A stretch of 64,000 bases of DNA from a virus: UHGV virus genome UHGV-1550212. The stretch is one strand, 5' to 3'. The notes below the pieces were generated by a model. That model was not told where the DNA came from. It searched no databases and saw nothing but the letters and a program-made list of their open reading frames with translations. The translations under genes and the position numbers were made by a program. Shown piece after piece: positions 3,052-62,291 of this stretch (positions are counted from its first letter, which is position 1; every line of letters starts with the position of its first letter).

Positions 3052-3059
3052 TTGTACAA
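3052..3059 (-). promoter_or_regulatory. TTGTACAA palindromic promoter-associated motif about 30 nt upstream of topoisomerase start
   Basis: same palindrome followed by AT-rich tract recurs upstream of many minus-strand genes. Confidence 0.4.
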
Positions 3060-4945: not shown

Positions 4946-4960
4946 AATGTTATTGTTTTG

Positions 4961-5209
4961 CTATATGAGACTTGTTATGACTTCAAGCACATGTTCTTTT
5001 GAATAGCACTTATCAAACTTATGCTTGAAGTCAAATAGTGACTCAAGCTTTGTTAAGTACCATTGATTGTCATACTTGAACCAGACTCGAGCATTTGCCG
5101 AACATATTGCATGCATTGCAGCATTCTGGTCTTCTTCAGGATTACGCCACTTAGACCCAAAGTGATATTGCAATGTAATGCCGCATTTATGAATTTCGTG
5201 CAATTTCAT
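4961..5209 (-). CDS. hypothetical protein (82 aa)
   Basis: ORF track. Confidence 0.35.
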   Translation of the reverse strand: MKLHEIHKCGITLQYHFGSKWRNPEEDQNAAMHAICSANARVWFKYDNQWYLTKLESLFDFKHKFDKCYSKEHVLEVITSLI

Positions 5210-5513: not shown

Positions 5514-5677
5514 GATTAATACTACACACTTGCAGATTTTGCACTTAATTGATAAATAATTTGTAAACATTTTCACAAACTTTTAACAGCTCTTTCGCTT
5601 ATGAAAACTACTCAACTCTGGTTTGAACGCCAGCAGTCAATCGCGGGGGGGCTCTTCGTGCTCCTGATTACATAGAT

Positions 5678-6370: not shown

Positions 6371-6390
6371 TAGTTGTAATATTGCGCAAA

Positions 6391-6425
6391 AAGAAAGCCG
6401 AACTGAATTTCAGTTCGGCTTTCTT
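6391..6425. terminator. bidirectional rho-independent terminator hairpin
   Basis: perfect 15-bp stem aagaaagccgaactg / cagttcggctttctt with 5-nt loop, A-run before and T-run after; between convergent genes. Confidence 0.6.
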
Positions 6426-6446
6426 TTTGCATACGCTTATGCTATG

Positions 6447-9766: not shown

Positions 9767-12700
9767 TCAATTACATGCTGAATGTCCGCAGTTGGTGCAT
9801 CGAACACAGCCATCAAACTTGACCATGTCACCGCCGCATTCAGGACACTTTGCATACATCTTTGAGCCATCTTGAATATGCAGTTTCAATGCGCGCCCAA
9901 TTGCTTTGCAGAATGTTCCGACAGATGCAAAGCTTTTTGCAGTTTGGTCGACAATTTCGCCAAGGTCAATGCCATTGCGAAGCATCGTTGAGTACAGTCG
10001 AGTAATTGTTTGCTGCTCGTCTGAACCAAGACGTTCTGAGATATTATCATAGTGCTGCAAGAATGACAAATTATCACCAAGCTTGTAGTGCTTCTTATCA
10101 GTCTTTGTGATTGTCGTTTGTTCAATGCCTTGCAACTTGTCGAATTCATCTTTGTCAAGTTCAAATGCAAAGATTTCATAAGGTCGACCGTCATCACAGC
10201 CTACAAGAATACACCACTTGCGCTTATACACTGACACGCAATACACTGCAGCAGGCAATACTGGTTTTCGTTTTGAGCGATGACCAGATTGCAAGATGTG
10301 CGACTTGTCTTTTGACTGCTTGTCATCTTTTACGAGAACACCTGCACGTGAGCCATCTCGATAAATTGTGCAGCCTTTGCAGCCAGATTTCCATGCAGTC
10401 AGATAAATTTCACGAACAAGCTCTTTTGTTGCAGAGTTTGGAATGTTGACCGTTACAGAAATTGACGAGTCAATGTATTTTTGCAATGCACCTTGCAATT
10501 TCACCTTGCCAATCCAGTCAACATCTTCAGTAGTTGCCTTGTAGTATGGTGATTGAATAAGCAATTCATCAATGACTGCTTGCGGAGCATTTGACAACCA
10601 AGCTTTGATGCGAGACATTTCTGCTTCTGACCATTCAATGCCAGTATCTTTGACAAGAGTAAATTTGCCATCGCCAAGCTGCACTCGTTTACAAATCCAC
10701 TGCATCAACGGATAATGAACTACAGCGTATTCAATGAACTTGTCACCAGTAGTCTCATCAATGAAGTTGATGTCGGCCTCATTATCAACTGCAGTTGGCT
10801 TACGACGACGTTTATGTAGTGGCATAAATACGGGCTCAATACCAGACGTTGTCTGAGTCATCAAAGCTGTAGTGCCTGTTGGTGCAATTGTGGTCGTGTT
10901 AATGTTTCGACGGCCAAATTGCTGATAAGTTTTGATGTGCTCATCATCAATCAGTTCAGATAGCATACGCTGGATGAACTTTGATTGCACATCTGTGTCA
11001 TAGTCAAATATTGCAAATGAGCCACGAATCTTTGCCAAGTCAATTGACGCTTCATAAGTCGCCTTTACAAGCCATTGTTGCATAGTGACTGCGAAGTCAA
11101 TTGACTCCTGCGAGCCATAACGCAAGCCAAGCATCGCCATTGCATCGCCAAGCGCAAGGAAGCCCATGCCATATCGACGAGTGTTTGTCAGTTTATCATA
11201 AACTTTGTGCCACAAGTCAAGTTCAGTCTTTTTGATGTCAAAGTCTTCTTTATCTGACCGAACCTTTGCAATGATTCGTTGCACTGCTTCAATTTCAAGC
11301 TGCACAAGGTCATCCATGATGACTGCACAGTCATATGTATCTTTGTAGAATGTCTCAAAGTCAAATGATGCATCAGCAGTCCAAGGATTAAGCACATATG
11401 CAGTCAAATTGCGATGCGACAAAATGCAGCTTGCATATGCAGCGAGAGGCTGTTCACCGCAATTTAGTGTATTGACTACTTGCTTGTCATTGACAGCAAT
11501 AAAGAAATTGTGGAAGTCTTCTACTGTGCCATTGTACACATCTGCTTTGTTCATGTGACGTGTTGCAACGACTTTGACAATTGCATCACCAGTAGTGTCA
11601 ATGTCTGCATATTTGCTGCAGTCACCTAACGCTGCGCAAGCATCACAGCAATATGCTTGTTCACGATTGTCATAAGAAACTTCGAATTCTTTACCACAGC
11701 ACTCGCATTGTTTGATAACTGTGTTTCGTTCTGTTTTTACAAGCTCGTCAGTCTTCAATGCAATTGATAGCTTATCTGCGCTTGGCATATCAATTGCCCA
11801 CAATGAGTCATTTGTTGCAAGGTCAATTGCATTCTTGAAATCGCCATTAGCAAGCCTGAACTCATGATTTGCTGTGCAATTGATGACATGGCCGTCATCA
11901 AGCACAATTTGAATGATTTGCGCATTATGTGCAGTCAATCTGGGTCGACGCATTGTGCGCACAACGAGCTTGCCATTAGAGTCAAGACAATATACTGGAA
12001 TGTCTTCACCACTATCAGCAAGCTCTTTGAATGTCTTCAAACCTGAGCCATCAGCAACAAGTACTTTTGTGTCACCTGTGAAGCATGGATTTGTTGAGCG
12101 CTCTTCATACATTTTGCCATATGCTTTCGAGTTCGACTCTTCCATGATACGGTCCCAGAAGAACACGCCGGGTTCTGCAGATGCCCATACGTTATCAACA
12201 ATTTTGTCAAACAATGCTTTTGCATCTGATGTCTTATGCAGCTCTTGGCCATTAGAGCCACGCCAAACATGCTCAAACTGTTGTTCTGCAAGCACTGCAC
12301 GCATAAATGCATCAGTAAGCTTGATTGAAATGTTTGCGCCTGTGATTTTCGTCAAGTCCTTTTTTGCATCAATGAACTTATCTGCGTCAGGATGCTCAAT
12401 TGACAATGACAACATCAATGCGCCACGCCTGCCATTTTGTGCAACTTCTTTTGTTGATGTTGAAAAACGTTCCATAAATGACACTACACCAGAAGTTGTA
12501 ATAGCACTGTTATGCACTTCTACGTCTTCTGGACGAATGTGCGACAAATCATGACCAACGCCACCACGACGCTTCATCAACTGAACTTGCTCTTCATCTG
12601 TTTTGAAGATGCCGCCATATGAATCTGCGTCATTGCCAATTACATAGCAATTTGACATTGACGTGTAACCGCCAAGACCAATACCAGCCATTGGAGAACC

Positions 12701-12988
12701 ACCAAGCACAAACCGCTTAAAAGGCTCAAGTAAATATGCAAGTCGTTCTTTTGACAATACACGTTTGCCTGTCTGTTCTTCAAATTGTGATTCGATGCGG
12801 TCAAATTCATTGACCCAGCGCTCATGCATATCAGACAATGAGTGTTCATACAAATTGTCTTTGTCATGATGCAAGTATTTTGACATGCATATGTCAGCAG
12901 CCATTGAATCGCCTGTAAATTCATGCGTCAGTGTAGTGTGCACTTCAGCATATTCAGGCGACCCAATTTGAATGGGATGTTTTGTCAT
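9767..12988 (-). CDS. nrdJ: class II (adenosylcobalamin-type) ribonucleotide reductase with intein and C-terminal zinc ribbon
   Basis: active-site motif STNP/CGEQPL interrupted by intein; C-terminal CPECGG...CVRCTNCGHSAC zinc-ribbon tail; ATG at 12988 (track start 13048 is TTG). Confidence 0.75.
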   Translation of the reverse strand: MTKHPIQIGSPEYAEVHTTLTHEFTGDSMAADICMSKYLHHDKDNLYEHSLSDMHERWVNEFDRIESQFEEQTGKRVLSKERLAYLLEPFKRFVLGGSPMAGIGLGGYTSMSNCYVIGNDADSYGGIFKTDEEQVQLMKRRGGVGHDLSHIRPEDVEVHNSAITTSGVVSFMERFSTSTKEVAQNGRRGALMLSLSIEHPDADKFIDAKKDLTKITGANISIKLTDAFMRAVLAEQQFEHVWRGSNGQELHKTSDAKALFDKIVDNVWASAEPGVFFWDRIMEESNSKAYGKMYEERSTNPCFTGDTKVLVADGSGLKTFKELADSGEDIPVYCLDSNGKLVVRTMRRPRLTAHNAQIIQIVLDDGHVINCTANHEFRLANGDFKNAIDLATNDSLWAIDMPSADKLSIALKTDELVKTERNTVIKQCECCGKEFEVSYDNREQAYCCDACAALGDCSKYADIDTTGDAIVKVVATRHMNKADVYNGTVEDFHNFFIAVNDKQVVNTLNCGEQPLAAYASCILSHRNLTAYVLNPWTADASFDFETFYKDTYDCAVIMDDLVQLEIEAVQRIIAKVRSDKEDFDIKKTELDLWHKVYDKLTNTRRYGMGFLALGDAMAMLGLRYGSQESIDFAVTMQQWLVKATYEASIDLAKIRGSFAIFDYDTDVQSKFIQRMLSELIDDEHIKTYQQFGRRNINTTTIAPTGTTALMTQTTSGIEPVFMPLHKRRRKPTAVDNEADINFIDETTGDKFIEYAVVHYPLMQWICKRVQLGDGKFTLVKDTGIEWSEAEMSRIKAWLSNAPQAVIDELLIQSPYYKATTEDVDWIGKVKLQGALQKYIDSSISVTVNIPNSATKELVREIYLTAWKSGCKGCTIYRDGSRAGVLVKDDKQSKDKSHILQSGHRSKRKPVLPAAVYCVSVYKRKWCILVGCDDGRPYEIFAFELDKDEFDKLQGIEQTTITKTDKKHYKLGDNLSFLQHYDNISERLGSDEQQTITRLYSTMLRNGIDLGEIVDQTAKSFASVGTFCKAIGRALKLHIQDGSKMYAKCPECGGDMVKFDGCVRCTNCGHSACN
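11462..12085 (-). mobile_element. intein (~208 aa) inside nrdJ at the NPC|GE active-site motif
   Basis: begins CFTGDTKVLV (block A), TANHEF (block B), VYNGTVEDFHNFFIAVND (block F), ends ...NTLN followed by Cys+1; Cys-rich CECCGK...CCDAC insert instead of a LAGLIDADG domain. Confidence 0.65.
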
Positions 12989-13030
12989 TGTAACAGTGCA
13001 TTTAAGTGTTTTAACTGTTTTATGTATAAA

Positions 13031-13038
13031 TTGTACAA
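13031..13038 (-). promoter_or_regulatory. TTGTACAA promoter-associated motif upstream of nrdJ
   Basis: about 45 nt upstream of ATG 12988, followed by TTTATACAT. Confidence 0.4.
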
Positions 13039-13058
13039 CAATGGGCAAAATTTTGCAT

Positions 13059-13104
13059 CAACTCAAAACAGCCAAGCAATTCATTGCTTGGCTGTTTTGA
13101 GTTG
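13059..13104. terminator. 46-bp perfect palindrome (22-bp arms, 2-nt spacer), likely terminator
   Basis: caactcaaaacagccaagcaat tc attgcttggctgttttgagttg. Confidence 0.5.
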
Positions 13105-13115
13105 ATGCGCACCTG

Positions 13116-13274
13116 CTATTTTACTTGAACAGCTTCTGCAAGAATGAAACTGCAATCTACTACATCATCTTCTTCGCATTTAGAATTGAAGTACTGCTGA
13201 GCATCCTTGGCATTGTCAAATGCTTCATACCATCGATGGTCAATGTAGTCTACTAATACAAGATAGTGTTTCAT
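13116..13274 (-). CDS. small hypothetical protein (52 aa, MKHYLVLVDYIDHRWYEAFDN...)
   Basis: ATG at 13274, TAG at 13116..13118; below ORF-track size cutoff; fills the gap between flanking genes. Confidence 0.3.
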   Translation of the reverse strand: MKHYLVLVDYIDHRWYEAFDNAKDAQQYFNSKCEEDDVVDCSFILAEAVQVK

Positions 13275-13296
13275 AGTTAGTTGCAGTTAGTTGTAG

Positions 13297-13752
13297 TTAT
13301 TGTGCTTTACCAGTGTAATAAGTGATTGCATCAATGTAAGGCTGTTCTTTAGACATTAGCCAATCAATGCCAAATACTGTATCTTGACGAAATCTTCGTT
13401 GTGCAATCATTTGAACTTCGATTGGCATATCTACGTCCTTGCCAAATCTGATTGTATTTGCAAGTTCTGTGATTGCATATCTGAGAATTGTGTCAGTACT
13501 CATTGTTAATGTGCTTTCCGGCAATTGCCAGTAACGTTCTTGGAATGCTCGATTTGCTGAGTAAGTCCAAAGTTCAAGTCTTGCATTTCTGCAATCATAT
13601 GAAACAATCAGACTTAATCCTTTTGTCCAGCAATGTGCTATCTTAATGATAGGGTTGTTGTCATTGATTGATGACATTGCTTGCAATCTTTCGAAATCTT
13701 TAACATATCTGTTATCATTCGAAAGCTGTTCCATTATTTCACCGTAAGTCAT
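13297..13752 (-). CDS. hypothetical protein (151 aa)
   Basis: ORF track; ATG preceded by conserved leader aacctctactaca shared with genes starting at 20558 and 62168. Confidence 0.5.
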   Translation of the reverse strand: MTYGEIMEQLSNDNRYVKDFERLQAMSSINDNNPIIKIAHCWTKGLSLIVSYDCRNARLELWTYSANRAFQERYWQLPESTLTMSTDTILRYAITELANTIRFGKDVDMPIEVQMIAQRRFRQDTVFGIDWLMSKEQPYIDAITYYTGKAQ

Positions 13753-13941
13753 TGTAGTAGAGGTTAAAATATATTAATATATAATAATTATACTACAAAG
13801 TTGTCAGATTTGCACCAGAATGTATAACAAGTTTGCATAAAAGTTTTACATAAAATGCAAACAAAACAAGCAGACTGCAATTGCAGCCTGCTTGCGCCAA
13901 AACAGAAAAAGATGATAACTTACTAACCCAAAAACCTAACT

Positions 13942-15483
13942 TTATCTACTTGCAGAATCCCGCATTGAAGTCATGACTTGCTCTTGAATTGTTATAGGCA
14001 TGATGTTGAAGTCTGACAATTCAGCAATGTCATCAACGTCAAGAGCTCTCAATGTATCTGTGGTGCAACAAGTCACAATGATTGACTTGCGAACAAACTC
14101 ATCTGCGACATTCCACAATAGTTGACAAATTGCTCGATTGTCAAGACAAATTTCATTAACTGTACGAACAAGACTGTACCATGCAGTCACATTGTTGCGT
14201 TTCAGAGTTTCAAGCATATATCGTGCAAGCCCAAAACCTGCTACATATAACCCAGTCTGTTTGTTGAATGACTCGATTGCGTATGCATCAAACAATGCTT
14301 CTGTCATCAAGGGCATTGCTGCAGTCATTCTGTAGTATCGATAGTCAACGCAGACAATTAGCCAGTTAACATATGAATTGACTGCATATGCATATGCCTT
14401 GAAGCCAAGGTCATTCAAGATTTTGCAAACAGCATTGTAAGTCGATTCATCAGCATTGCCAAAGTTTGCAAGCAACTTAACTTTCAGAATGTCTTCACCA
14501 ATTGCATTTCTTGTAGCAGTGAATGATGGCATACATGCAAAGCTTCTTTTGCAGATGTCTGTGATAAGTTGCTGTGCATCATTTACAAGTTGTCTTGCAG
14601 CCTCAGCACGTTTTTCAGACTGTGCTTGATATTTTGGTCGCAACTGTGATGAGCCAGTCGCAGCACCATATCGCATAGCAGCTTGCCAGTCCTTGAGATT
14701 ATTTTGCAATTCACGAACATAGTCTGCAGCAACCATTGCAGATGGAGTTCTTTGTTGCTCGATTAGTTTGTTGATGTTTGCAAGCACATCTGATGCAAAC
14801 ATATCTTTTGGCTTGACTCTTGCAATTTCAGCAAGCACTGCCGGTACACGAGCAATACCGCGAGGTTCATTTGAAACTACTACTGCATAGTCTACAAGTG
14901 CCTCACATACAAGCTGCTCATCAACAAAGTACTCAGGATTCTGCACAGCATCTTCAACAACTGCAATCAATGTTGCTCTACGATTGTCATCAGGTTTGTT
15001 GCCAAACAGCTCAATGTACAGCATGTCTGCTTGCTGGTCTGTCATTGAACCTGCGATGTCAATTGACTTTGCAAGTTTGTTAAGCAGTTCAGCTTGCTTA
15101 CTTGACAATCTGACTTTGTATGACGACTCTACGGCTTCTTTGACTGCTTTGAGTTTTCTATCAATGTCAAGGCTGCTTTCATTGACATTCATGCCGACAA
15201 TACTTGCAGCTTCAGTGTTAAATTGCTCAACAGTTTCTGCTGCAGTTATTGGCACTGACACAATAGATTGTTTTGCATTTGCTGCAAGCTGATTGAGTCG
15301 ATTGACTGCTTCAGAATCTTGCACAACTGCAAGATATCTTACGCACAGCTCATCAATCTGTGAAAGATAACTTTGGGTCATGTTTATCGAAAAAATGTTG
15401 TTTCTTGACGAATAGCTGTTGGATGCAATTTGCGGAAACACTTCGACATTTCTAAGTTCTGATGATGACAACAATGTTTCCAT
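13942..15483 (-). CDS. hypothetical protein (513 aa), possible virion protein
   Basis: ORF track; contains GMNVNE-SS motif. Confidence 0.45.
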   Translation of the reverse strand: METLLSSSELRNVEVFPQIASNSYSSRNNIFSINMTQSYLSQIDELCVRYLAVVQDSEAVNRLNQLAANAKQSIVSVPITAAETVEQFNTEAASIVGMNVNESSLDIDRKLKAVKEAVESSYKVRLSSKQAELLNKLAKSIDIAGSMTDQQADMLYIELFGNKPDDNRRATLIAVVEDAVQNPEYFVDEQLVCEALVDYAVVVSNEPRGIARVPAVLAEIARVKPKDMFASDVLANINKLIEQQRTPSAMVAADYVRELQNNLKDWQAAMRYGAATGSSQLRPKYQAQSEKRAEAARQLVNDAQQLITDICKRSFACMPSFTATRNAIGEDILKVKLLANFGNADESTYNAVCKILNDLGFKAYAYAVNSYVNWLIVCVDYRYYRMTAAMPLMTEALFDAYAIESFNKQTGLYVAGFGLARYMLETLKRNNVTAWYSLVRTVNEICLDNRAICQLLWNVADEFVRKSIIVTCCTTDTLRALDVDDIAELSDFNIMPITIQEQVMTSMRDSASR

Positions 15484-15495
15484 GTGATATGTATT

Positions 15496-16044
15496 TTAGC
15501 CTGCAAACTCATTGATTTTTAGGTCATTTGTCGTAACTGCAAAGCAATCAATGTGCAGCCATGTGACGTCTTTTTCTATACGACAACGATGCGGCAATTC
15601 ATCTGCATGCTCTTTAATGAGCTTTCGCATTTCTGCAGCAGTCATATCTGCAGACTGACAATCAATTGCTGCGCCATTACAATGAGCACTCAAATAAAGC
15701 TTGTTTGCAAGCGTTTTGTCTTTTGGAATTTGACAAATATTGCATCGTAAGCCACGTTGACTCATTGCGCCGCCTTTAGCCCAATTATTGACACATAACG
15801 GCACTTTCAGCACAAATTTGCGTAATGCAAGCAGCAAATCAAGCAGTTCTCTGTCAAGAAACTGCCAAGAATTATCGCCAAACTTGTCATAGCAGTGTTT
15901 GCATACAAGTTCTTTTATGCTGAAATATTGCTTAAGCTCTGCAATAACAGAGTCTCTTGAAGCACTTGCAATATCTGCAATGTTAGTTATGCTGTTGTTG
16001 CTGTTGTTCATGTTGTCTGTCAAGTTCTTTGCATTTGCACTCAT
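15496..16044 (-). CDS. peptidase M15-family endolysin (L-alanyl-D-glutamate / D-Ala-D-Ala peptidase-like)
   Basis: zinc-binding signature LSAHCNGAAIDC (SxHxxGxAxD) and WLHID; likely start at in-frame ATG 16044 or 16011. Confidence 0.6.
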   Translation of the reverse strand: MSANAKNLTDNMNNSNNSITNIADIASASRDSVIAELKQYFSIKELVCKHCYDKFGDNSWQFLDRELLDLLLALRKFVLKVPLCVNNWAKGGAMSQRGLRCNICQIPKDKTLANKLYLSAHCNGAAIDCQSADMTAAEMRKLIKEHADELPHRCRIEKDVTWLHIDCFAVTTNDLKINEFAG

Positions 16045-16294
16045 TTCGTTCACCCATGACTTTTGTAATACCTGCAGTTGCAAACATGCCTGCGACTGCG
16101 CCAATTATGCCTGCAACTGCGCCAAGTTGTTCAGTTGTTTTGCCAGTTGCTACGACTTCCCATATGATTGCAAAACAAACAACGAGTAATATAAAGATGC
16201 CTATAAAAGTCACAGCTACGACAAAAAATGATTTGACTGACACACCAGTGTCATTCGTCACTAAGTTGCGCATTGTAAATTTGTTGTTATTCAT
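15983..16294 (-). CDS. holin-like small membrane protein (103 aa)
   Basis: two hydrophobic helices (FFVVAVTFIGIFILLVVCFAII; LGAVAGIIGAVAGMFATAGI) and charged C-terminus; overlaps start of the M15 peptidase gene. Confidence 0.4.
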   Translation of the reverse strand: MNNNKFTMRNLVTNDTGVSVKSFFVVAVTFIGIFILLVVCFAIIWEVVATGKTTEQLGAVAGIIGAVAGMFATAGITKVMGERNECKCKELDRQHEQQQQQHN

Positions 16295-20558: not shown

Positions 20559-20653
20559 TGTAGTAGAGGTTTGTTAATTTATTATTTATAGATATATAAT
20601 ACTACGACAATGCAAATTTTGCACTGTCGTAGCATAAAAGTTTACACATTTTT

Positions 20654-31950: not shown

Positions 31951-32646
31951 TCATCGTACAGTGAATGAATTATCGTCATCTTCTGTAGTAGTTGGGTCAT
32001 CAATTACATCGTGGCCAATACCTGACATGGGCTCTGGCTCAGGTTCCGGTTCAGGTTCCGGTTCAGGTTCCGGTTCAGGCTCCGGTTCAGGTTCCGGTTC
32101 AGGTTCCGGTTCAGGTTCCGGTTCCGGTTCCGGTTCAGGTTCCGGTTCAGGTTCCGGCTTGGGCTTTGATGAATAGTTAAACATCTTGTGAATCCATTTG
32201 CACCACCATTTGTGACATGCATGTGCGCCATCATGATAATACGCTTGCAGCTCCATTGGAATTGCATGATATGCTTTGTCATGTGACATACCTTTGAATA
32301 TTCGCAAGTACACATAGCACAAGCAATATGCAATGTAGTACATAAGCGGTGATGCAAGCAGCCACCACCAGCTAAGCACATTGCATGCTGCAAGCACAAT
32401 AAGTACAAGCAACGTCGCAAGTGTTACAAAGATGAATTGCTTTGCATGCACAGCTTCATGCTTCAAGGTCTCAGAGTATCTGCTAAGTGTGTCATCATAT
32501 GACTTATCACTTCTTATGAAGCACATTGCACACAACGACATTGCATAATAATGTGAAAATGGAATGCATGGCTGGTCGATGACAAGCATTGGTCCAGCAA
32601 ACCACAGTCGCCACTGAGATTTATTTGGCAGTGTTGCAGTTTTCAT
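31951..32646 (-). CDS. membrane protein with HExxH motif and long (Pro-Glu)n repeat
   Basis: HEAVH motif next to two hydrophobic helices, then about 25 PE dipeptides and an acidic tail. Confidence 0.5.
32029..32160 (-). repeat. hexanucleotide tandem repeat (ggttcc/ggttca)n encoding (Pro-Glu)n
   Basis: about 22 near-perfect 6-bp units with a 12-bp super-period. Confidence 0.9.
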
Positions 32647-35704: not shown

Positions 35705-38700
35705 TTAGCCACGAATCAAGTCAACCAAGCGTTGCTGTTCAGGAGTCAATGAAGACTTTCCGCTGCCATCAATGTTTTCGTTAACGAAACCGACTGGCTG
35801 CTTAGTCGAATATGACTTGATTGCAGCCCAGTTACGTGAACGATAGAATGCTGCGACATCTGACTCATTTACGAAAGTGCGAACTGCTGCCTGAGTAGCA
35901 ATCAATGACTTCTGTTCAGGAGTCAAGCTTTCATAAATGTACTTGTATGCTGTTGGCATATGCTTCAGATACAATGGTGTATGGTCAATTGGCTGCAGGT
36001 TCTCATCCAAGACTGCTACACCAGCAGCATCATAGCGAGTTGCAAGCTGCTTTGTTTGACGACGCAATGCAGCAATTTCATGCTTGATGCTTGTCAAGCA
36101 TTCATCAGTTGCTTGTGCGCCAAGATATGTGCGAAGCATATCAGACAGCATCTTCTGATTTGCATCGGTCAAATCACCTGCAACTTCAATGCCAGTCAGC
36201 TGGCCATCTTTGCTGATGACTACAGAAATTGTAGAACCGTCGCGTTCAACTGTGCGGAAGTCAAAGTCATCGTATGACTTATCCTTAAGGACAGCTTCAC
36301 GAATATTGTCATCTACGCCTTCATTGACCATGCTCATGCATTCCTCAACATCTACGTCAAGTCCAAGCTCTTCTGCAGTTTCAGCAATCTTTTCTGCAAG
36401 CTGAGCTTTATTCTCAACTTTGTCAAGGTCTGCTGCATCTGATACAGCATCGACAAGTTCATCTGCCTGTGCACGAGTAATCGTTGAAGCATCAACAAGG
36501 CCATCAATGATTTGCTCTACATCTGCAGGTGTCGGCTTGTTGTCTTCTGCTGCTTCATTGATAAACTTGGCAGTCTTTGGCTTGTAGCTAAGCTTGCCCT
36601 CATTGACCATCTCATCCTGCAATTGTGCAGCGATGTATGCAATTAGCAATGACTTGTTGGCTTCAAGTTCATCGACTGCTTCAGCAGACTTTTGAGCTTT
36701 GATGAGTTCATCGTAAGCTGCTGCAACTTTGTCATCCATCGTAGACTTGTCAGGGTCAATGTTTTTGATGCATGTCTTGACAATATCATCCTGATAGAAC
36801 TTGTCAATGATTGATTTGTCTGTGTCAGAGTATGTTGCATATAACTTGTCTGCGACAATTGATTCATTGACAATCTTGCCTGGCTCAGATGCAGGAACAA
36901 GAGTCCACTTACCATCAACTTCTGCAACAATGCCTGAAGTCGATTCGCCATAAGTGACTGTTAGACGAGTGCCTGCTTCATTGTTGTCAATTGTGTTGAC
37001 GACTGCTTCGAATTCATTACCATCAGCGTCATAGATTTTGATGCTGTCACCGACAGCAGCTTCATCTACTGGTGCTTCGAAGAACTCTTTGACAAAGTTC
37101 TGAACATCAACGGGCAGACTGTCATATGGCTGTGATGCATAGTACTCTGAGTCAGCATCAAGGTAATTCTTTGAAAGCAGCCAAGCTTTTCGAGTAGCAA
37201 CATCTGCAGCATTCCAAGCATCGACTGACTCATCGCAGTCATCGACAAGTGCAAGATACTCATGGTCTTTCTTGTCATCAAAACGAAGAGTAATCTTTTG
37301 TTCGGGCTTGCCAGCAGGCCAAACTTCGACTTCAATTTCTGTAGTGCCTGCAACATTTTTGACTGTGCCTACAACAATCTTGTCGCCTTTGTTGATGCCA
37401 TTAGACATGTCGTATGGTGCTTCAATAGATTCATCTGTCGACTGAGCTCGAATTGCTGCAGCAATAGCATTACGAGATTCATTGTCGAACATCTCCCATG
37501 TAGCATTCGCAGCATCTTCTACACCAATCTTGTCTTTGCCAACCTGCTCAATCAACTGATTGCGGTCAGCTACTGAAGCATTGTACCACCAGTCTGCAGC
37601 AGTGTCAGATGCTTCATTGACAAATGCATTGAGCAATGCAGTCTGAACGTTATCAGGCAACTTGTCAAAGTCAACAAGCTCTACGTCATCTGCAATATTT
37701 GCTTGCTTTGCTGTTGCTTTACGGCCATCTGCATCAGACTTATTCCAGTCATCAATGAATGCCTGTTCAGCAGCAGATTCATCAAGCGCTTTGACAGTTT
37801 CATATCGACCGTCATACAGCATGTACTTATCGCCTTCTTTGATGGCTACAGACTCCTTGCCATTGTACTTGAATGACACTTTGTCACCATTGAAGCCGGT
37901 CAATTCAGCTGTGATTTTATCGCCATTCTTGTCATACACTTCAACTGTCTGCTCTTCATCAATGTTCAAGTGCTTCTTGAGTGCATCTACAAGTTCTTTG
38001 CCAAGAGCGTCTTCATTGTCATGGGCTTGCTGGAAGCAATCTTCATCTGACTTGTCAGGCTGAACAGCTTTCAATGCTGTTGCCCGATTAAGCATTGACA
38101 TCGTGCCCCAGATTGACATGAAGCTTTTGCCCTCATTGTCTTGTGCTTCGGCTTCGTCAATTGCATCAATGTCTTTCTCAAGCATTGCATGATGAGCAAT
38201 GTCGATGCCAGACCATTTCGTCTTTGCATTATATGGCAAACCAATATGCTTCGACAAAATTGACTGACGTTGGTCATCTGTGAATGAATCCCAAGCTTCG
38301 CCAAGTGTTGCATGCTTTGCTTCATCAGCAGCAAATTCTGTTTCAATCTTAAGTTTGTGGTCCTTGTCAATCAGTTGCCACTTGGCATTTGGACGATAGA
38401 ACTCAGACAATGACAGCTTGTCAAGAATGACTTTGCGTTCGTCATCTGACAATTCGTCCCACTTGTTGTCAGCAGATTCATCGATGTTGACGAGTTCTTT
38501 CTCAATGAGATTCTTGTCAAGCATTGCATCAATGATTGGCTGCTGGGCTTCTGCTGGAATGTCTTTGAACGACTTAATTGCAATGACAGCGTCTTTGTCA
38601 TCAACTTTAGCAGCTTCAACAATTTCTGTCTTCACTTCATCAGTCAAAGCGCCCCAAGCAGCATCGAGATAATCAAAGTTGAGAGCTTCATCACATTCAA

Positions 38701-39820
38701 CAATGCCATACTGCTTTGCAATGTCATTGTGCTTGTCAAGATTGCTGTTGAGTTCAGCTTCAATTGCTGCTTTGATGTCATCAATTGACTTATCTTCAAC
38801 TTCAAGCTCAAGAGCTTTTGCAAGTTCAGTCAATGCTGCATCATCAAGCTTGCTAATGTCATAAGGCTTAGCATCTTCATTTGTGAAGTCAATGCCAAGC
38901 AAAGACATTGCTTGCTTCTTGTTTTCTTCTGAGAGTGCATCGAATGCAGTTGCAAGACCGACATCGGTGTAGTCGCACCCAACTTCGTCAAGTAATGCTT
39001 CGACTTTCTGGATGTTTTCTACGCCAACTTCGTTAGCATCAGCATTGTTGTATGCCTCAACAAAACGTGATTGGTTTGTCATGGTAGTGAAATCTTCTAT
39101 TGATTCGTTTATGAGTTGCTGTTTGAGTGCATCCAATGATGCTGAGCCAATCAATGCATCAGGGAATAGCTTCTGCAACATACCTGTACGTGCAAGCTCA
39201 ATCAATTGGAGCATCAATGAGTTTGGCGAGTCTTCGTCATCTACAGATTCACAAATGAGAGTGTCTTTTGATTCATTAACTGAACCGACAAGATTGAACT
39301 CTGCATTCGAAAAGCCTGGCTGTGCAACCAAATCAAATGTCACGATTTTGAGAAGCTGAACTCTGCCAGTAGTTGGATTGACTACGCCAAGGGCGCGACT
39401 TGAAATGAACAATGGCGAACCTGCTGTAACAATTGCCCATGCAATGCGACCTGCAGGCGTATCAAGAATTGTAATGTAGCCTTCAAAACGTCGTTTTTCA
39501 GGATTCCATTCAATACTGTCCAATCTGTGGCTTACGTTTCCATAACGTACAGTACGTCGCTTAACATGTTCAAGTTCGCCAAGAAGTCGCTTTGCTTTAA
39601 TTGCAGGTTGCAATGCCTGTACTTGAGCAAAGTAATTCTCAAAGTCATACGTGCGCCCATTTTCGTTTTTCTGGTCCATGTATGCATACACGCCAAAAAG
39701 ACGACCAAGTGCGCCGCTTGGCACATGAGAATCTTCTGCTTCAACTACAAACTGACAATCTGCGCGGCTTTCAAGCATAAGTGAGGCTTCCCTGCCTTTG
39801 TACTTATATGACTTTGCCAT
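35705..39820 (-). CDS. prohead protease-like N-terminal domain fused to ~1200-aa acidic scaffold-like region
   Basis: N-terminal ~190 aa with GELEHVKRR and LFISSRALGVV (gp21-like His/Ser context); remainder highly acidic with nine aliphatic-N-E motifs; ATG at 39820. Confidence 0.5.
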   Translation of the reverse strand: MAKSYKYKGREASLMLESRADCQFVVEAEDSHVPSGALGRLFGVYAYMDQKNENGRTYDFENYFAQVQALQPAIKAKRLLGELEHVKRRTVRYGNVSHRLDSIEWNPEKRRFEGYITILDTPAGRIAWAIVTAGSPLFISSRALGVVNPTTGRVQLLKIVTFDLVAQPGFSNAEFNLVGSVNESKDTLICESVDDEDSPNSLMLQLIELARTGMLQKLFPDALIGSASLDALKQQLINESIEDFTTMTNQSRFVEAYNNADANEVGVENIQKVEALLDEVGCDYTDVGLATAFDALSEENKKQAMSLLGIDFTNEDAKPYDISKLDDAALTELAKALELEVEDKSIDDIKAAIEAELNSNLDKHNDIAKQYGIVECDEALNFDYLDAAWGALTDEVKTEIVEAAKVDDKDAVIAIKSFKDIPAEAQQPIIDAMLDKNLIEKELVNIDESADNKWDELSDDERKVILDKLSLSEFYRPNAKWQLIDKDHKLKIETEFAADEAKHATLGEAWDSFTDDQRQSILSKHIGLPYNAKTKWSGIDIAHHAMLEKDIDAIDEAEAQDNEGKSFMSIWGTMSMLNRATALKAVQPDKSDEDCFQQAHDNEDALGKELVDALKKHLNIDEEQTVEVYDKNGDKITAELTGFNGDKVSFKYNGKESVAIKEGDKYMLYDGRYETVKALDESAAEQAFIDDWNKSDADGRKATAKQANIADDVELVDFDKLPDNVQTALLNAFVNEASDTAADWWYNASVADRNQLIEQVGKDKIGVEDAANATWEMFDNESRNAIAAAIRAQSTDESIEAPYDMSNGINKGDKIVVGTVKNVAGTTEIEVEVWPAGKPEQKITLRFDDKKDHEYLALVDDCDESVDAWNAADVATRKAWLLSKNYLDADSEYYASQPYDSLPVDVQNFVKEFFEAPVDEAAVGDSIKIYDADGNEFEAVVNTIDNNEAGTRLTVTYGESTSGIVAEVDGKWTLVPASEPGKIVNESIVADKLYATYSDTDKSIIDKFYQDDIVKTCIKNIDPDKSTMDDKVAAAYDELIKAQKSAEAVDELEANKSLLIAYIAAQLQDEMVNEGKLSYKPKTAKFINEAAEDNKPTPADVEQIIDGLVDASTITRAQADELVDAVSDAADLDKVENKAQLAEKIAETAEELGLDVDVEECMSMVNEGVDDNIREAVLKDKSYDDFDFRTVERDGSTISVVISKDGQLTGIEVAGDLTDANQKMLSDMLRTYLGAQATDECLTSIKHEIAALRRQTKQLATRYDAAGVAVLDENLQPIDHTPLYLKHMPTAYKYIYESLTPEQKSLIATQAAVRTFVNESDVAAFYRSRNWAAIKSYSTKQPVGFVNENIDGSGKSSLTPEQQRLVDLIRG

Positions 39821-39953
39821 ATTTGAATTGTGTTTGAAAGTTTGCAAATTTTTGTTGTTATTGATTATATATGCAAGGCAGACTTGTGTGTTGAAAAATT
39901 GCAAAATTTCAGTTATGTGTACATAACAAAACCATCCAAATCAATTCAATTAT

Positions 39954-40622
39954 ATGTCAACAAACAATCATGGCAAGCTCAGATTGCTTGAGCTCAAAGA
40001 AGCACAGCCATATGACACGCTCAAAATTGGCATTGACGTATCAGTAGATGCTACTGGCATGTGCATGATATTTGGCAAAACTGTTGCGCTGTTCAAATTT
40101 ACGCCGCACTTGCCACCAGAAGATGACAGTTCAGATGATGTGAATTTTGTGCAGTTCAACAAAATCTATCTGCAAACATCATCTTCTGCAAGAGAACGCT
40201 CAAAAATGCATACTCGACACACACTTGCAAACAAGATTGTTGACGCGATTGATATGTTCATGCAGGAAATTTGGCCGAATAGCCCAGCAAACATTCAAAT
40301 TGTTACAGAAGGGTCTGCATATGGCTATGCCGCACACAACTCTAACAGCTTGGTAGAACTTGCTGAATTTAGAAGCGTGATTTTAGAAAGAGTCTATCAT
40401 CGTTGGCCACTCGGCACGCATCTAAGTCTTGACGTTATTGCGCCAAAATCATTGAAGAAACATGCAACCGGTGACGGCAAAGCAGACAAACTAAAGATGA
40501 TTGAAGCTGCAATTGCTAAGTTGACACACATTCATTGGGCAGGCAAAATTGACGATGAATGCGATGCATTGCATCTTTGTCTGTATGAGCCATTAAGCAA
40601 TCCTGAACCACGACTTTGGTGA
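39954..40622 (+). CDS. RuvC-like Holliday junction resolvase
   Basis: KIGIDVSVDATG (catalytic Asp region), IVTEGSAYG, KSLKKHATGDGKADKLKM and DECDALHLCLY parallel RuvC motifs. Confidence 0.55.
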   Translation: MSTNNHGKLRLLELKEAQPYDTLKIGIDVSVDATGMCMIFGKTVALFKFTPHLPPEDDSSDDVNFVQFNKIYLQTSSSARERSKMHTRHTLANKIVDAIDMFMQEIWPNSPANIQIVTEGSAYGYAAHNSNSLVELAEFRSVILERVYHRWPLGTHLSLDVIAPKSLKKHATGDGKADKLKMIEAAIAKLTHIHWAGKIDDECDALHLCLYEPLSNPEPRLW

Positions 40623-40788
40623 CATTACATCGTACAACATAAGTTTCATTTCAAAAACTCAATTCATATGCAAATCCCTCGTAACTGGGGGTGGGGCACA
40701 ACAAGCCCTCCAAGTCAAAGACGGCGCATTTGACATCACTGTGCGCTTTACATGTGAAAGCTCTACAGCTGCACAATATAAGTACATC

Positions 40789-41049
40789 ATGGTGCACATT
40801 GATGGCTTACATGCAGCAGGTCAATATGCATATCTTGGCGTATCATTGTCACAGACAGGCGTCATATACCATGCAAAGTGGACATCTGGTTCTGGTACAG
40901 GACCTCAAGGCCCATTTAAGCCAGGCACAATTATCAGATTTGGCTTGCACAATTCAGTGTCATCAACTACAACGCCTCGTGCAATGCAAGCAATAGAAGT
41001 TGACGCAAAGCAATTTGGGCAAAATTATGCTATATTGTTTCAGCTGTAG
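40789..41049 (+). CDS. hypothetical small protein (track ORF 40741..41049 with GTG start; first ATG at 40789)
   Basis: ORF track; preceded by GGGGGTGGGG run. Confidence 0.3.
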   Translation: MVHIDGLHAAGQYAYLGVSLSQTGVIYHAKWTSGSGTGPQGPFKPGTIIRFGLHNSVSSTTTPRAMQAIEVDAKQFGQNYAILFQL

Positions 41050-41092
41050 TATTGATTGCAATGGTATGCACTCGTTAACATAAGCATCAAAA

Positions 41093-41121
41093 AACTCCGA
41101 CAGAATTGTTCTGTCGGAGTT
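41093..41121. terminator. bidirectional terminator hairpin
   Basis: 13-bp stem aactccgacagaa / ttctgtcggagtt with A-run before and T-rich after; between convergent genes. Confidence 0.5.
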
Positions 41122-41167
41122 TGCTGTTGTAAACAGCTGTCTTAATGTTTTGCAATCTATAGCAAAT

Positions 41168-42961
41168 TCAATTTTGTGTTGCAACGTCATCAGTCTTGTT
41201 ATCAACTGGCTCATCGTCGACATGTGTATCAACATCAATGCCAGAAGCTGCAGCAAGTGAAACATCATTAGCGACGCCTTGTTGTTCAAGTTGTTGTTGA
41301 GCTTGCTTTGTTTGAATTGCGACAAGTCTTGCAGCTTCCATTGCAAGCTTAAGATTCTCTTGAAGTTCGATATCAAGCTGTTCAGCATTAGCTTGCATGT
41401 CTTCTTTGCTTAAGCCAAGATACTTGTTGATAAGCCAATTGCTTGAGAAGAATGGGCGTTCAGTATCAGACATGTTAAGTGAACGAACAAGTGAACTGCG
41501 AATGTCTTCGATTGTATGAATACGCTTCTGAAGCAATGTGAGCTCCATTTGCGTCTGGAAATGATTGTATCTATTGAATTTGAGTTTTAGCGCATTCAAA
41601 ACTTCATTGTCGCCAATGTAGTTATTGTTTTTGATGCACATCAAAACATACACAGGCTTCAATATGATTGCAATGCCAAATCTACGCATCAAAGCTGAAA
41701 TAAAGATTGCAAAACGACGCTCATCACGCTGAATTGACTCTTCAGAAACATTCCACATGCCACCGCCATCATCGAATCTGCTTAGAGGCAGCTTTGACAG
41801 ACGTTGTAAGTTATTGCGGAAATATGTGACTGCTGAAGTATCAGATAAGTCAGGCATGCCTGTGCCAATTGTTTGAATGTTGGGTTTGCCTGCATTAGTG
41901 TCAGCCATCCAAAATTCGCTATTGAAAGGCACAGATGCTTCGCCATTAACTTGGAGTTCGCCGGTTTGATTGTCGAATTCAATTTTTTCGTGGTACTTAT
42001 TCATTGCTTTACGCAATGTTTCCTGTGCAGCAGCTTTCAGTTTACCGCCAGTAGGAATTGTGATAAGTGAACGAAAACGAGAAGCTGTCGTAGCATATGC
42101 AATGCGACTTCGCTCCAAAATCCTGAGCAAGTTGAATGCACGAACAAGACGCTCAAAATATGACATAGACCCAACCATGTCATCGTTCCACTGCAAATAT
42201 GCTACTTGCGAATCAAGCAAGTTGATTTTTTCTGAGTTGTTAGACACAAATGCTGGTGCTTTGACATCAAACATTGTATGTGTCTTGAACATATCTTGTT
42301 GAGACTTATCATACTGCCAGAAGAACATTTCACCCTTCTTCATAGGCGTCAATGCAAATGCATTCAACTTTTTGATGCCAACAATATCAGTCGGCTCATC
42401 TGCATTATCAAACACAATCTCATAGCCAAGTCTGCCTCGTACAAGATATTCACGCAACAATGCTCTAACATCTTGTTTGCGAGGTTCAGAGTTCAACCCA
42501 TTGAATGCATACATCAAATAGACTTGCTTGAATGCATCCATAAAGTCATCTTTGATTGTCTGCTTTGCTGTGTCGTCTATCTCAAGTTTATCGATGTCAC
42601 AAAAATCAGGCTCGCAAAAGAAATTACTATCGGAATTGAACACGATGCACTCATCAATCATGCGGTCAAGAATGTCGTCGAGTTCCGGTTCTGCACTTAA
42701 GATGTCATATTTTTTGGCTCGAAGATAACTTGTCAATCCAAAAAGATTCTTTTTAGGTGACTCTTTCTGATTGAACACGTCATCAGTAGACAACACAACA
42801 ACTTCTTGGTCATTGATGTTATGCTCACCTGTATATGCTGCTTTCTCCAAATCTGCATCAGACCCAGACTTGTGCACATTCAATTGCTGCAATGGACTGT
42901 CTTTCGGAATTGAGCGTAATGCATCAGTTCCCAGATATGTTCGTTTGGTCTTTTTAGCCAT
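41168..42961 (-). CDS. portal protein (gp20-like), putative
   Basis: 597 aa, basic N-terminus and acidic C-terminal tail; segment KDDFMDAFKQVY...RALLREYLVRGRLGYEIV fits the portal pattern; located upstream of protease/scaffold. Confidence 0.5.
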   Translation of the reverse strand: MAKKTKRTYLGTDALRSIPKDSPLQQLNVHKSGSDADLEKAAYTGEHNINDQEVVVLSTDDVFNQKESPKKNLFGLTSYLRAKKYDILSAEPELDDILDRMIDECIVFNSDSNFFCEPDFCDIDKLEIDDTAKQTIKDDFMDAFKQVYLMYAFNGLNSEPRKQDVRALLREYLVRGRLGYEIVFDNADEPTDIVGIKKLNAFALTPMKKGEMFFWQYDKSQQDMFKTHTMFDVKAPAFVSNNSEKINLLDSQVAYLQWNDDMVGSMSYFERLVRAFNLLRILERSRIAYATTASRFRSLITIPTGGKLKAAAQETLRKAMNKYHEKIEFDNQTGELQVNGEASVPFNSEFWMADTNAGKPNIQTIGTGMPDLSDTSAVTYFRNNLQRLSKLPLSRFDDGGGMWNVSEESIQRDERRFAIFISALMRRFGIAIILKPVYVLMCIKNNNYIGDNEVLNALKLKFNRYNHFQTQMELTLLQKRIHTIEDIRSSLVRSLNMSDTERPFFSSNWLINKYLGLSKEDMQANAEQLDIELQENLKLAMEAARLVAIQTKQAQQQLEQQGVANDVSLAAASGIDVDTHVDDEPVDNKTDDVATQN

Positions 42962-42981: not shown

Positions 42982-44220
42982 CTATACACGTCTTGTCAAT
43001 TTGACATGACCGCAGTCATCTGCAAGCAGTTTAACATGACCGCAGTCATCTGCAAGCAGTTTAACATGACCGCAGTCATAAACTTTGACGAAGCCTGCAT
43101 CAATCATAGTTTGCTCATCATGATTGCAGTCAAGCACATGTGTATGAGTTTTCATATTGTACCAATGCAAGCCGATGTAAAAGTCAGTCTTGTGATATGC
43201 GTCAGTATATAATCGTGGGTCATCTATAGACAAATCAAGTTCGACGCAGTCAGCAGTCTGCAGTTGTTCTGTGTCAGTTAGCAATGATTTGACAAGCTTG
43301 ACTACAGCATCAAATGACATCCAATCAAATACAGTGATGCATCTATAGCCATGTTGCATAGCTGTGCAACATTTGTCAAAATGCGTAGTTGATGCAATTG
43401 GCTTGTTGACTGTAGAACGACCAGTAGCAAAATCAAATGCAAATGTGCTGTTATGCGTAAATGACGGATTGACATCAATTAGCAAATTGTCATATCGCAA
43501 ATCAAATGCGTAGCAATCTACGTCATGTTCATATTCAAAATCAACACCAGTATGCTCAAGTAGCATATCATGTAACAAGACGTTTGGCTTTGTAATGATT
43601 TTGCCATTTGCAAGTCTGCACTTCTGAGTTAAACAATGCCAAGGCACGCCATATCGTTCAAGTGTAGTGTTGCTAATCTTCTGCAAATTGCCAAAACCGC
43701 TGCCATAGCGTAATTGCTTTGTGACTGTTTGCTGTGCAACATTACCATTAGCATGACCAAACTTGTTGATGTTTGTTTGCTTGCGCTTAGCATTTGCAGT
43801 TGCAATATCAACAGATTCAAGTGACTCAAGAAATTTTGACATGTCGCCAAGCCCATTGCCATATAGTTGACGTTTAGTGTCAACAACTTTTGTCATGTTC
43901 CAGTGCTTGTAGCCATATCGAGCTTCTTTTGTCGCAAATGCTTTGTCATAGTTGCCAAAGCCTGCATGACCATATCGTTCAACTTTTGTTGCAGCAATTT
44001 TGTCTGAGACTTCTTTAAGCTGATGTTTGTATTCAACGCCAAACTTGCGCAAATTTGATATGCGAATGTTGAACACTCGTTTGACTTTTGTATGCGTAGA
44101 GCCTTTGTCAAGCTTTGCATATGGAATTTGTGCAAGTGCAGCGTCTCTTTCATCTTCAAGCTCTCTTATTCGAGCTTCAAGTGCATCACCAGCCAAAACT
44201 TCTATGCGTATAGTCTGCAT
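42982..44220 (-). CDS. RYG-repeat / Vsr-DUF559-like nuclease with C-terminal tandem decapeptide repeat
   Basis: N-terminal ALEARIRELEDERD coiled coil, RYG repeats, LLIDVNPSFTHNS...GYRCITVFDW...FVKVYDCGH; C-terminus DCGHVKLLAD repeated three times. Confidence 0.55.
   Translation of the reverse strand: MQTIRIEVLAGDALEARIRELEDERDAALAQIPYAKLDKGSTHTKVKRVFNIRISNLRKFGVEYKHQLKEVSDKIAATKVERYGHAGFGNYDKAFATKEARYGYKHWNMTKVVDTKRQLYGNGLGDMSKFLESLESVDIATANAKRKQTNINKFGHANGNVAQQTVTKQLRYGSGFGNLQKISNTTLERYGVPWHCLTQKCRLANGKIITKPNVLLHDMLLEHTGVDFEYEHDVDCYAFDLRYDNLLIDVNPSFTHNSTFAFDFATGRSTVNKPIASTTHFDKCCTAMQHGYRCITVFDWMSFDAVVKLVKSLLTDTEQLQTADCVELDLSIDDPRLYTDAYHKTDFYIGLHWYNMKTHTHVLDCNHDEQTMIDAGFVKVYDCGHVKLLADDCGHVKLLADDCGHVKLTRRV
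43001..43080 (-). repeat. 30-bp tandem direct repeat (about 2.7 copies) at the 3' end of the nuclease gene
   Basis: ttaacatgaccgcagtcatctgcaagcagt repeated. Confidence 0.85.
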
Positions 44221-62168: not shown

Positions 62169-62291
62169 TGTAGTAGAGGTTTGTTGTGTTCTGTATATTA
62201 TGTTCGAATATATGAGGACATATATTATATATAGATATATTACAACACGCAAATCATTTTTGCACACTTTTATAAACCAAATTTCACAAAA

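Follow-up and report, generated by a model that had tools for sequence, protein, structure and literature searches.

The window analysed here, a 64-kb stretch (41% G+C) of the UHGV virus genome UHGV-1550212, is part of a large T4-like phage in which almost all genes lie on the minus strand. Islands of plus-strand genes are formed by an open reading frame (ORF) at 5601/5702-6370 and by a RuvC-like gene at 39954-40622 followed by an ORF at 40668/40741-41049; a gene for the large subunit of topoisomerase II is also found in the window. The subject of this work is three G-rich tracts, which we call sites A, B and C. Site A lies between the stop codon of gene 225-734 and the ATG at 200 of the next gene (minus strand), site B lies in the first of the islands, and site C lies in the second, between the portal and the prohead-protease genes. 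All three had been noticed in a first-pass annotation of this DNA and are indeed present where it had placed them (Table 1).

Runs of G are rare in this DNA. On the plus strand, runs of five or more G are confined to the three tracts, and the window has two runs of five or more C, both of them C5 and intragenic. We took chance expectation from 200 first-order Markov simulations of the window: four runs of at least G5 were observed against a simulated mean of 0.75, two of at least G7 against 0.015, and two G4+NG4+ patterns against none in the 200 simulations. The number of tracts is well above chance, and the proviso of the first-pass annotation, that G-runs might simply occur at random frequency, fails on this count. 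The dinucleotides GG and CC occur in the window at 0.45 and 0.62 times expectation. The same depletion is found in the related contigs L001-L003 and L022-L024 and is clade-specific, the ratios being near 1 in other T4-like relatives (L004-L021). Avoidance of certain codons or restriction sites, or purging of slippage-prone runs, are possible reasons for it.

Tract length and reading frame

The first-pass annotation regarded the G-runs at sites B and C as elements in intergenic positions, upstream of genes and at junctions where the coding strand switches. The strand switch stands for site B, which lies at a divergent junction, and falls for sites C and A, flanked by two plus-strand and by two minus-strand genes, respectively. 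The upstream position had to be given up for both B and C, as these tracts lie inside ORFs whose true starts are ATG 5601 and ATG 40668; they lie 44 nucleotides (nt) and 19 nt downstream of these ATGs. At both sites, a short ORF opened by that ATG enters the G-run and soon stops, and the long ORF further downstream extends, in another frame, back across the G-run without a stop. In the window, the frame of ATG 5601 reads MKTTQLWFERQQSIAGG|LFVLLIT* and the body frame ...GGALRAPDYIDVRFTLVDDMSIH..., while at site C the frame of ATG 40668 reads MQIPRNWGWGTTSPPSQRRRI* and the body frame ...GGGAQQALQVKDGAFDITVRFTCE.... Below, the constant 5' part of such a gene is called its leader, the long ORF behind it the body, and the two together the cassette.

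Relatives for site C were contigs with an identical RuvC gene or with homologous cassette proteins, taken from IMG/VR, ENA and Logan; all tract lengths given here are those of consensus contigs and not of reads. The site C tract could be read, after CGTA(A/G)CT, in 10 metagenome contigs from different samples, and five lengths were found (7, 9, 9, 10, 10, 11, 11, 12, 12 and 12 nt). Lengths of 9 or 12 nt give an uninterrupted gene of 117-124 amino acids (aa): G9 in L060 and L061 encodes 124 aa (P0012), G12 in L045 and L046 encodes 117 aa (P0025), and G12 in L062 encodes 118 aa (P0016). Lengths of 7, 10 or 11 nt, as in L065 (G7), the window (G5TG4), L001 (G5AG4), and L063 and L064 (G11), put the body out of frame and lead to truncation after 20-28 aa. 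As only multiples of three keep the gene intact, the 10-nt tract of the window is out of frame; by computation, two additional G's or one G less would yield an intact ORF of 126-127 aa running from 40668 to 41049. The flanks of the tract vary at 1.5% of sites, and the tract itself differs in 86% of contig pairs.

This has a consequence for annotation. In the source annotation, the site C gene is P0013, a ‘hypothetical protein’ of 102 aa starting at GTG 40741; since the leader ATG and the body share a frame only when the tract length is a multiple of three, we consider this a truncated call. In G9 and G12 genes, the callers place the start at the leader ATG. Thus, when a tract is out of phase, gene callers mis-annotate such genes, choosing internal GTG or ATG starts or leaving ‘intergenic’ G-runs. 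Possible internal starts in the site C body are GTG 40741 and ATG 40789. The third type of body, P0016, has no internal Met at all, so the leader ATG is its sole ATG start. Two further proteins, P0029 and P0031, start from a different ATG upstream, whose frame matches a tract of 10 nt.

At site B, six DNA alleles were found: G6 in L022 and L024, G7 in the window and L023, GGGTGGG in L003 and G8 in L067. The G8 allele opens a 256-aa ORF beginning with MKTTQLWFERQQSIAGGALRAPDYIDVRFTLVDDM, and the same 256-aa protein, starting with MKTTQLWFERQQSIAGGALRAP, is encoded by two ENA contigs (P0022 and P0023); adding one G to the tract of the window predicts exactly this product. The G6, G7 and GGGTGGG alleles are out of frame, and G6 and G7 yield peptides of 21-24 aa. 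Leader-bearing N-termini would read MQIPRNWGGGA... at site C and MKTTQLWFERQQSIAGGA... at site B, and phages with G9 or G12 at the former, or G8 at the latter, would be expected to carry the leader-start sequences MQIPRNWGGGAQQAL... or MKTTQLWFERQQSIAGGALRAP....

It had also been suggested that the two plus-strand ORFs share a start context, GTGCG[GC]TTTAC. Two exact copies of this motif do exist, at 5678-5688 and 40741-40751, one in each cassette body, and the two bodies belong to families without detectable homology. As a start context we rejected it, because the motif encodes V-R-F-T within the ORF bodies and is missing from other alleles, and neither GTG 5678 nor GTG 40741 is conserved, the former being GTA in L022 and GTC in L003. 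The cassette proteins of B and C were likewise dismissed as paralogs (BLASTP not significant; hhalign probability 0.08).

Site A is of a different layout. Read on the minus strand, TTATGATGA is followed by the tract and then by AAGCAACC-ATG(200). The alleles are C7AC5 (13 nt) in the window, C8 in L022, C6 in L003 and CCACCCACCCCC (12 nt) in L067. The ATG that overlaps the stop codon shares the frame of the downstream gene at 6 or 12 nt but not at 8 or 13 nt; in L067, the downstream gene is called from the overlapping ATG, with 299 aa. The downstream protein can start at ATG 200 whatever the length of the tract. As the tract only decides whether the overlapping ATG is in frame, any effect is probably on a 7-8-aa N-terminal extension or on translational coupling.

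Cassettes, flanks and neighbouring genes

The borders of both cassettes were located by comparison with a 175-kb IMG/VR contig of 95-97% nucleotide identity to the window. Identity breaks exactly around the two plus-strand ORFs, at 5665|...|6387 and at ~40713|...|41057. Cassettes have been exchanged: in the relative, the site B body is swapped for an unrelated 216-aa ORF and the site C body for a 28%-identical allele, and a third, unrelated body at site C is that of P0016. The leader of site C heads all three body types (P0012/window, P0025/L001 and P0016), and in L044 and L047 the site is empty, with the terminator directly after RuvC. Whatever the body type, the 5' junction does not move: it follows ...AQQALQ at C and ...ALRAP at B, and because of this each leader provides a constant N-terminus of 16-22 aa. 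An imperfect direct repeat, 40636-40662 / 41077-41098 (AACATAAG..CAAAAA(A)CTC), flanks cassette C; L044 and L047 keep both copies with only ATGCACAT between them. The repeat may be a trace of, or a handle for, the insertion or deletion of cassettes.

Table 1. Positions of the tracts, cassette parts and neighbouring genes in the window
Feature	Position	Strand	Description
Site A tract	209-221	minus sense	GGGGGTGGGGGGG on the plus strand, C7AC5 on the minus strand; 13 nt
Stop/start overlap	222-230	minus	TTATGATGA; TGA 227-225 overlapped by ATG 228-226 and ATG 225-223; possible coupled starts
Site B constant leader	5601-5665	plus	ATG 5601; MKTTQLWFERQQSIAGG(G)ALRAP; shared with the otherwise unrelated L003 cassette up to 5665
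Site B tract	5645-5651	plus	GGGGGGG (G7); codons 15-17 of the accessory ORF; out of frame, G8 in frame
Site B cassette body	5651-6370	plus	frame GCT CTT CGT ...; 239 open codons from tract to stop; ORFan
GCTCC	5660-5664	plus	8 nt 3' of the site B tract; potential pairing partner; 5' replacement junction next to it
Premature TAG	5673-5675	plus	closes the 24-codon frame of ATG 5601 in the G7 phase of the window
Site B internal start	5702-5704	plus	ATG, conserved in all site B alleles
Site B terminator	6386-6430	both	perfect palindrome, 22-nt arms, bidirectional; 3' identity breakpoint at 6387
Prohead-protease-like ORF	35705-39904	minus	1399 aa; Peptidase_S77, phrog_207
RuvC-like resolvase	39954-40622	plus	conserved 5' neighbour of cassette C
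Site C constant leader	40668-40713	plus	ATG 40668; MQIPRNWG(G)GAQQALQ; nucleotide identity with relatives stops at 40713
CCCTC	40676-40680	plus	6 nt 5' of the site C tract; potential partner of the first G-block
Site C tract	40687-40696	plus	GGGGGTGGGG = G5TG4, 10 nt, interrupted; codons 7-10 of the accessory ORF
Site C cassette body	40697-41049	plus	frame of 40741; 117 open codons; stop at 41047-41049
CCCTCC	40706-40711	plus	9 nt 3' of the site C tract; potential partner of the second G-block; replacement junction next to it
Premature TGA	40731-40733	plus	closes the 21-codon frame of ATG 40668 in the tract phase of the window
Site C terminator	41085-41129	both	perfect bidirectional hairpin, stem CTCCGACAGAA/TTCTGTCGGAG, A- and T-tracts
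Portal gene	41168-42961	minus	gp20-type

In out-of-frame alleles, the body is open to its usual stop, over 239-241 codons at B and 107-117 at C. For well-diverged pairs, the ratio of nonsynonymous to synonymous substitution rates (dN/dS) was 0.2-0.5 at B and 0.4-0.7 at C, with values of 0.54-0.70 when the site C allele of the window was compared with those of L060 and L065. With bodies open and dN/dS at 0.2-0.7, the off alleles are not decaying pseudogenes. Identical bodies found in different samples carry tracts of equal length (G12 twice, G9 twice), and bodies 2-4% apart mostly differ in it, which argues that tract lengths are real, heritable, reproducible and fast-evolving. A similar arrangement, outside the three sites, was seen in L002 (59% portal identity), in which a G6 run at 4600-4605 splits an accessory ORF (4531-5062; ATG 4531 gives MSYNSKYSGNQVQNSLDWIAEAGGG...) that G5 would restore and that has no homolog in the window.

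The cassette proteins are ORFans with clade-restricted homologs; an exhaustive HMMER search with a cassette protein found only its own cluster plus one fragment. In searches for more relatives of the phage, megablast against GenBank phages gave none, a scan of JGI metagenomes gave only relatives at 42% identity or less, GTDB genomes gave none, and a DNA pattern search of IMG/VR returned only the contig already known. Scans of the window against Rfam and for tRNA genes had no matches. Shine-Dalgarno motifs are missing from all gene starts in the window, and the regions upstream of starts are rich in A, C and T and poor in G. For these two reasons, G-runs do not serve as ordinary translation signals here. 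Judged by portal sequence, the closest cultured phages (about 30% identity) have Chryseobacterium and Tenacibaculum (Flavobacteriia) as hosts, and together with the missing Shine-Dalgarno motifs this suggests that the host is probably a member of Bacteroidota. A scan with the sigma-70 consensus gave promoter-like sites not above those in shuffled sequence, and host promoters are probably not sigma-70-like; scans for sigma-70 promoters and for terminators were uninformative.

Some further observations concern the genes around site C. In L050 and L051, relatives whose RuvC is 80% identical, portal, RuvC and protease genes all point the same way; in the lineage of the window, RuvC and cassette are inverted relative to the other two genes. 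In the 1399-aa prohead-protease-like protein, the Peptidase_S77/phrog_207 match spans only about residues 39-349; the other ~1000 residues are unannotated, and the relatives measure 1345-1589 aa. Beside the portal gene, a 412-aa ORF (42982-44220, minus strand) is missing from the 97%-identical L001 (an indel of ~1.2 kb); its weak matches to a homing-endonuclease PHROG and to DUF7487 indicate that it is probably a mobile endonuclease gene. Several observations concern other parts of the window. The large subunit of ribonucleotide reductase is encoded at 9767-13048 (1093 aa), in L022 at 12070-15291 (1073 aa) and in L067 at 12170-16156 (1328 aa), and matches to Intein_splicing and HNH_3 in relatives suggest that the size varies with the content of inteins and homing endonucleases. 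L022, a 179-kb relative, has beside its topoisomerase gene an extra 302-aa gene (4155-5126; faint match to Phage_endo_I) which is missing from the window at ~3034-3065. The sequence AACCTCTACTACA occurs on the minus strand in three exact copies (13753-13765, 20559-20571 and 62169-62181) and in seven copies when up to two mismatches are allowed, 0.6 being expected; it stands directly before an ATG in at least two cases and may represent a conserved element of leaders or promoter-proximal regions, possibly of late genes. Finally, a 12-nt tandem repeat, TCAGGTTCCGGT (32039-32157; 9.9 copies, 96% matches), lies inside the minus-strand ORF 31951-32646 and would encode a peptide repeat of short period.

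Weighing the explanations

Slippage or phase variation was one of the options offered by the first-pass annotation, and it is the one that has gained support: near-identical relatives differ in tract length, with which the genes go in or out of frame, and the off alleles are intact. On these grounds we regard sites B and C as hypermutable homopolymer loci of the contingency type in an uncultured T4-like phage and, judging from the comparison of sequences, assign this reading a probability of about 0.75. In this scenario, each gene would consist of a constant leader (start codon, short peptide, poly-G encoding Gly-Gly(-Gly) and about five codons), followed by a short G/C stem-loop of which the tract would be the G arm, then by an interchangeable ORFan body and a bidirectional terminator. 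Strand slippage during replication would add or remove G's, and the leader ATG would be joined to the body only at certain lengths, namely 9 or 12 nt at C and 8 nt at B. Both genes of the window would then be in the out-of-frame state, and the tract at site A would be a minus-strand counterpart of the other two. The sequences show where the tracts lie, that their lengths vary and change the frame, that the bodies stay open and under selection, and that cassettes are exchanged behind one leader; slippage as the mechanism, rapid reversible switching within populations and any adaptive role in bet-hedging are inferred from this. The T within the site C tract should slow further slippage.

Several points weigh against this reading. 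Reversibility is what defines phase variation, and the consensus contigs give only indirect access to it and to heterogeneity within one population. Tracts interrupted by T or A, as in the window and in L001/L003, would be locked rather than switching. Such interruptions are found in 4 of the 6 tracts of two JGI/IMG assemblies and in 1 of 15 elsewhere (p = 0.011), which could be an effect of lineage or of pipeline. In-frame alleles (2 of 7 at B, 5 of 10 at C) are not enriched over the 1/3 expected by chance. ATG 5702 at site B, and GTG 40741 or ATG 40789 at site C, could express most of the body regardless of the tract. At site A, tract length leaves the frame of both annotated genes unchanged. 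The cassette proteins have no match in Pfam or PHROG, and AlphaFold models of them reach a predicted local distance difference test (pLDDT) score of only 36-38.

Some of these points would suit another explanation, in which a tract slips neutrally in a 5' untranslated region or upstream ORF and the proteins are made from internal starts. The conservation of ATG 5702 in all site B alleles, the callers' use of internal starts for off alleles, the lack of an excess of in-frame alleles and the harmlessness of site A changes to both annotated genes all fit with it. However, it would have to account for a type-3 body without internal Met, for the lack of conservation of GTG 5678 and GTG 40741, for the 15-17 codons between tract and internal start that have no stop in any allele or body type, and for a leader peptide that is constant across unrelated bodies, with a fixed junction; moreover, one would not expect neutral processes to produce or keep long G-runs in DNA where GG is held at 0.45 times expectation. 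The constant leader peptide, the open codons between the starts and the Met-less body make purely neutral slippage quite improbable. Recoding is less probable still. The out-of-frame arrangement might itself be functional, bridged by programmed frameshifting or transcriptional slippage, and G GGG GGG at site B does fit an X XXY YYZ heptamer in the leader frame. Long homopolymers allow RNA polymerase to slip, and some rescue of out-of-frame alleles is plausible. The required offset, however, is not constant: site C alleles occupy all three phases, which speaks against a programmed event, and site B would need +1 from G7 or +2 from G6; GGGTGGG, G5TG4 and G5AG4 are poor slippery sites, and in-frame alleles need no recoding.

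The first-pass annotation also allowed for sequencing or assembly errors at G homopolymers, and for a G-quadruplex or pausing signal; of all explanations, we find these the hardest to believe. Poly-G is error-prone on some platforms, the contig L048 ends 12 nt short of the tract, and the interruptions cluster in JGI assemblies as noted above. Errors are nevertheless an unlikely source, given that the same lengths recur across independent samples and pipelines (G12 in ERZ28616342 and ERZ27279839, G9 in ERZ27240671 and SRR12137097, G11 in SRR33022432 and ERZ28576867, and G8 in two ENA contigs) and that several tracts carry substitutions, the T interruption at site A being common to the window and L067, although the exact length in any one assembly may still be off. 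A search of both strands of the window for intramolecular G-quadruplexes (four runs of at least three G, loops of 1-7 nt) gave no match. Another origin, non-templated addition by a reverse transcriptase, was rejected as the tract is found within the conserved leader, 15-25 nt in, and not at the junction.

More is to be said for an element like the PeSLs (promoter-early stem-loops) of T4-type phages, whose poly-G/poly-C stems flank ORFans and are proposed recombination handles (PMC2839356). The tract would then be the G arm of a stem-loop that marks the cassette boundary and either attenuates transcription or promotes recombination, and its effects on the frame would be incidental. The surroundings of the tracts offer some support. 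CCCTC, which occurs 17 times in the 64 kb (CCCTCC twice), stands on both sides of the site C tract (joint P about 2e-5), the tract at site B has GCTCC 3' of it, and local hairpins are predicted at the leaders; 5' replacement junctions come right after these motifs and do not shift between body types, terminators end the cassettes, and empty sites exist. On the other hand, the tract is 3' of the start codon and not in a spacer between stop and ATG, the folds are no better than those of dinucleotide shuffles (z = -0.56 and -0.07), the stems have 5-6 bp with G-U pairs, the predicted hairpin of site B is absent from the GGGTGGG allele, and promoter-like sites are at chance level. Nor does such an element explain why in-frame lengths create complete, selected ORFs from the leader ATG. 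As a full explanation it seems unlikely to us, and its features are best seen as complementary to the contingency reading rather than as an alternative.

The contingency reading could also be extended. In a bolder version, which is tentative and which we would rather doubt than defend, leader, poly-G and cassette form a modular system in which ORFan effectors are switched stochastically and independently, each by its own tract; the leader might be a virion-targeting or export signal and the stem-loop a recombination handle. If this were true, a single population would display combinatorial states of expression, for instance of anti-defence or injected proteins, and the system would be a phage counterpart, in a Bacteroidota lineage, of contingency loci combined with integron- or PeSL-like shuffling.

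Comparison with known systems

The PeSLs of T4-type phages resemble the cassettes in several ways (PMC2839356, PMC4122927). In both systems, short conserved elements with G and C tracts, in stem-loops that are predicted here, flank ORFans that are replaced among near-identical phages, and the units have their own terminators. The insertion, deletion and replacement of ORFans that mark PeSLs correspond here to three unrelated bodies plus an empty site at C, and to two unrelated bodies at B. PeSLs, however, stand between an upstream stop and the downstream Shine-Dalgarno sequence and ATG, with a sigma-70 promoter, whereas the tracts described here follow the ATG, have no Shine-Dalgarno sequence and have shorter predicted stems; membership in this class fails on location, because the tract is inside the ORF. 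With the internal proteins of T4 and their capsid-targeting sequence, only the architecture is shared, that is, a short constant leader on variable, non-essential bodies, and the T4 internal protein genes have no homopolymer switch. The leader of site B (MKTTQLWFER) matches the targeting sequence MKTYQEFIAE at M1, K2, T3 and Q5 (4/10), its W-F-E does not make an (L/I)-x-E site, and the leader of site C (MQIPRNWGGGAQQALQ) has no Glu and no resemblance to it; we thus abandoned the idea of a capsid-targeting sequence. A leader of the double-glycine bacteriocin type was considered as well, since both leaders end in GG, and was dropped because the spacing of hydrophobic and acidic residues does not fit.

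In bacteria, contingency loci based on simple sequence repeats (Neisseria, Haemophilus, Campylobacter, Bordetella; PMC5084427, PMC1891110, PMC2831843) likewise have a homopolymer near the 5' end of an ORF that is in or out of frame among relatives, with the off ORFs intact; the difference is that the tracts described here are carried by a lytic-type phage. Such loci are recognised by a homopolymer of roughly 7 nt upwards in an ORF or its promoter, and tracts of this kind are found here, within ORFs at B and C. The multiple ATGs upstream of the repeats are a known trait of H. influenzae lic1, and the alternative start codons of P0029 and P0031 resemble that arrangement.

To our knowledge, phage homopolymer phase variation has been documented essentially only for the receptor-binding genes of Campylobacter phages. 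According to articles that cite the original work, these phages have hypermutable polyG tracts which make the expression of receptor-binding proteins phase-variable (Sorensen et al. 2021, Cell Rep 35:109214, as cited in PMC10579305 and PMC10877375). As far as these accounts go, Fletchervirus and Firehammervirus share with the phage described here G homopolymers in coding sequence whose length shifts the frame and would thereby produce expression variants within a phage population, a large myovirus-type genome and a T4-like head module. There are differences as well. The Campylobacter tracts are in receptor-binding-protein genes, and the host itself is polyG phase-variable, whereas here they are in small ORFans on the opposite strand, in a clade whose closest cultured relatives are phages of Flavobacteriia; the cassettes are not located in a tail-fibre module. 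In addition, the tract is here in a constant N-terminal leader shared by interchangeable bodies, and the switching is deduced from contigs. The same device seems to be used by an unrelated, uncultured T4-like lineage, at three loci, in natural populations sampled many times, and with an arrangement of leader and cassette that has no counterpart in the Campylobacter phages. If switching is confirmed, phage-encoded contingency loci would be wider spread than has been thought, and small, fast-evolving phage proteins such as these would be likely to act at the interface between phage and host.

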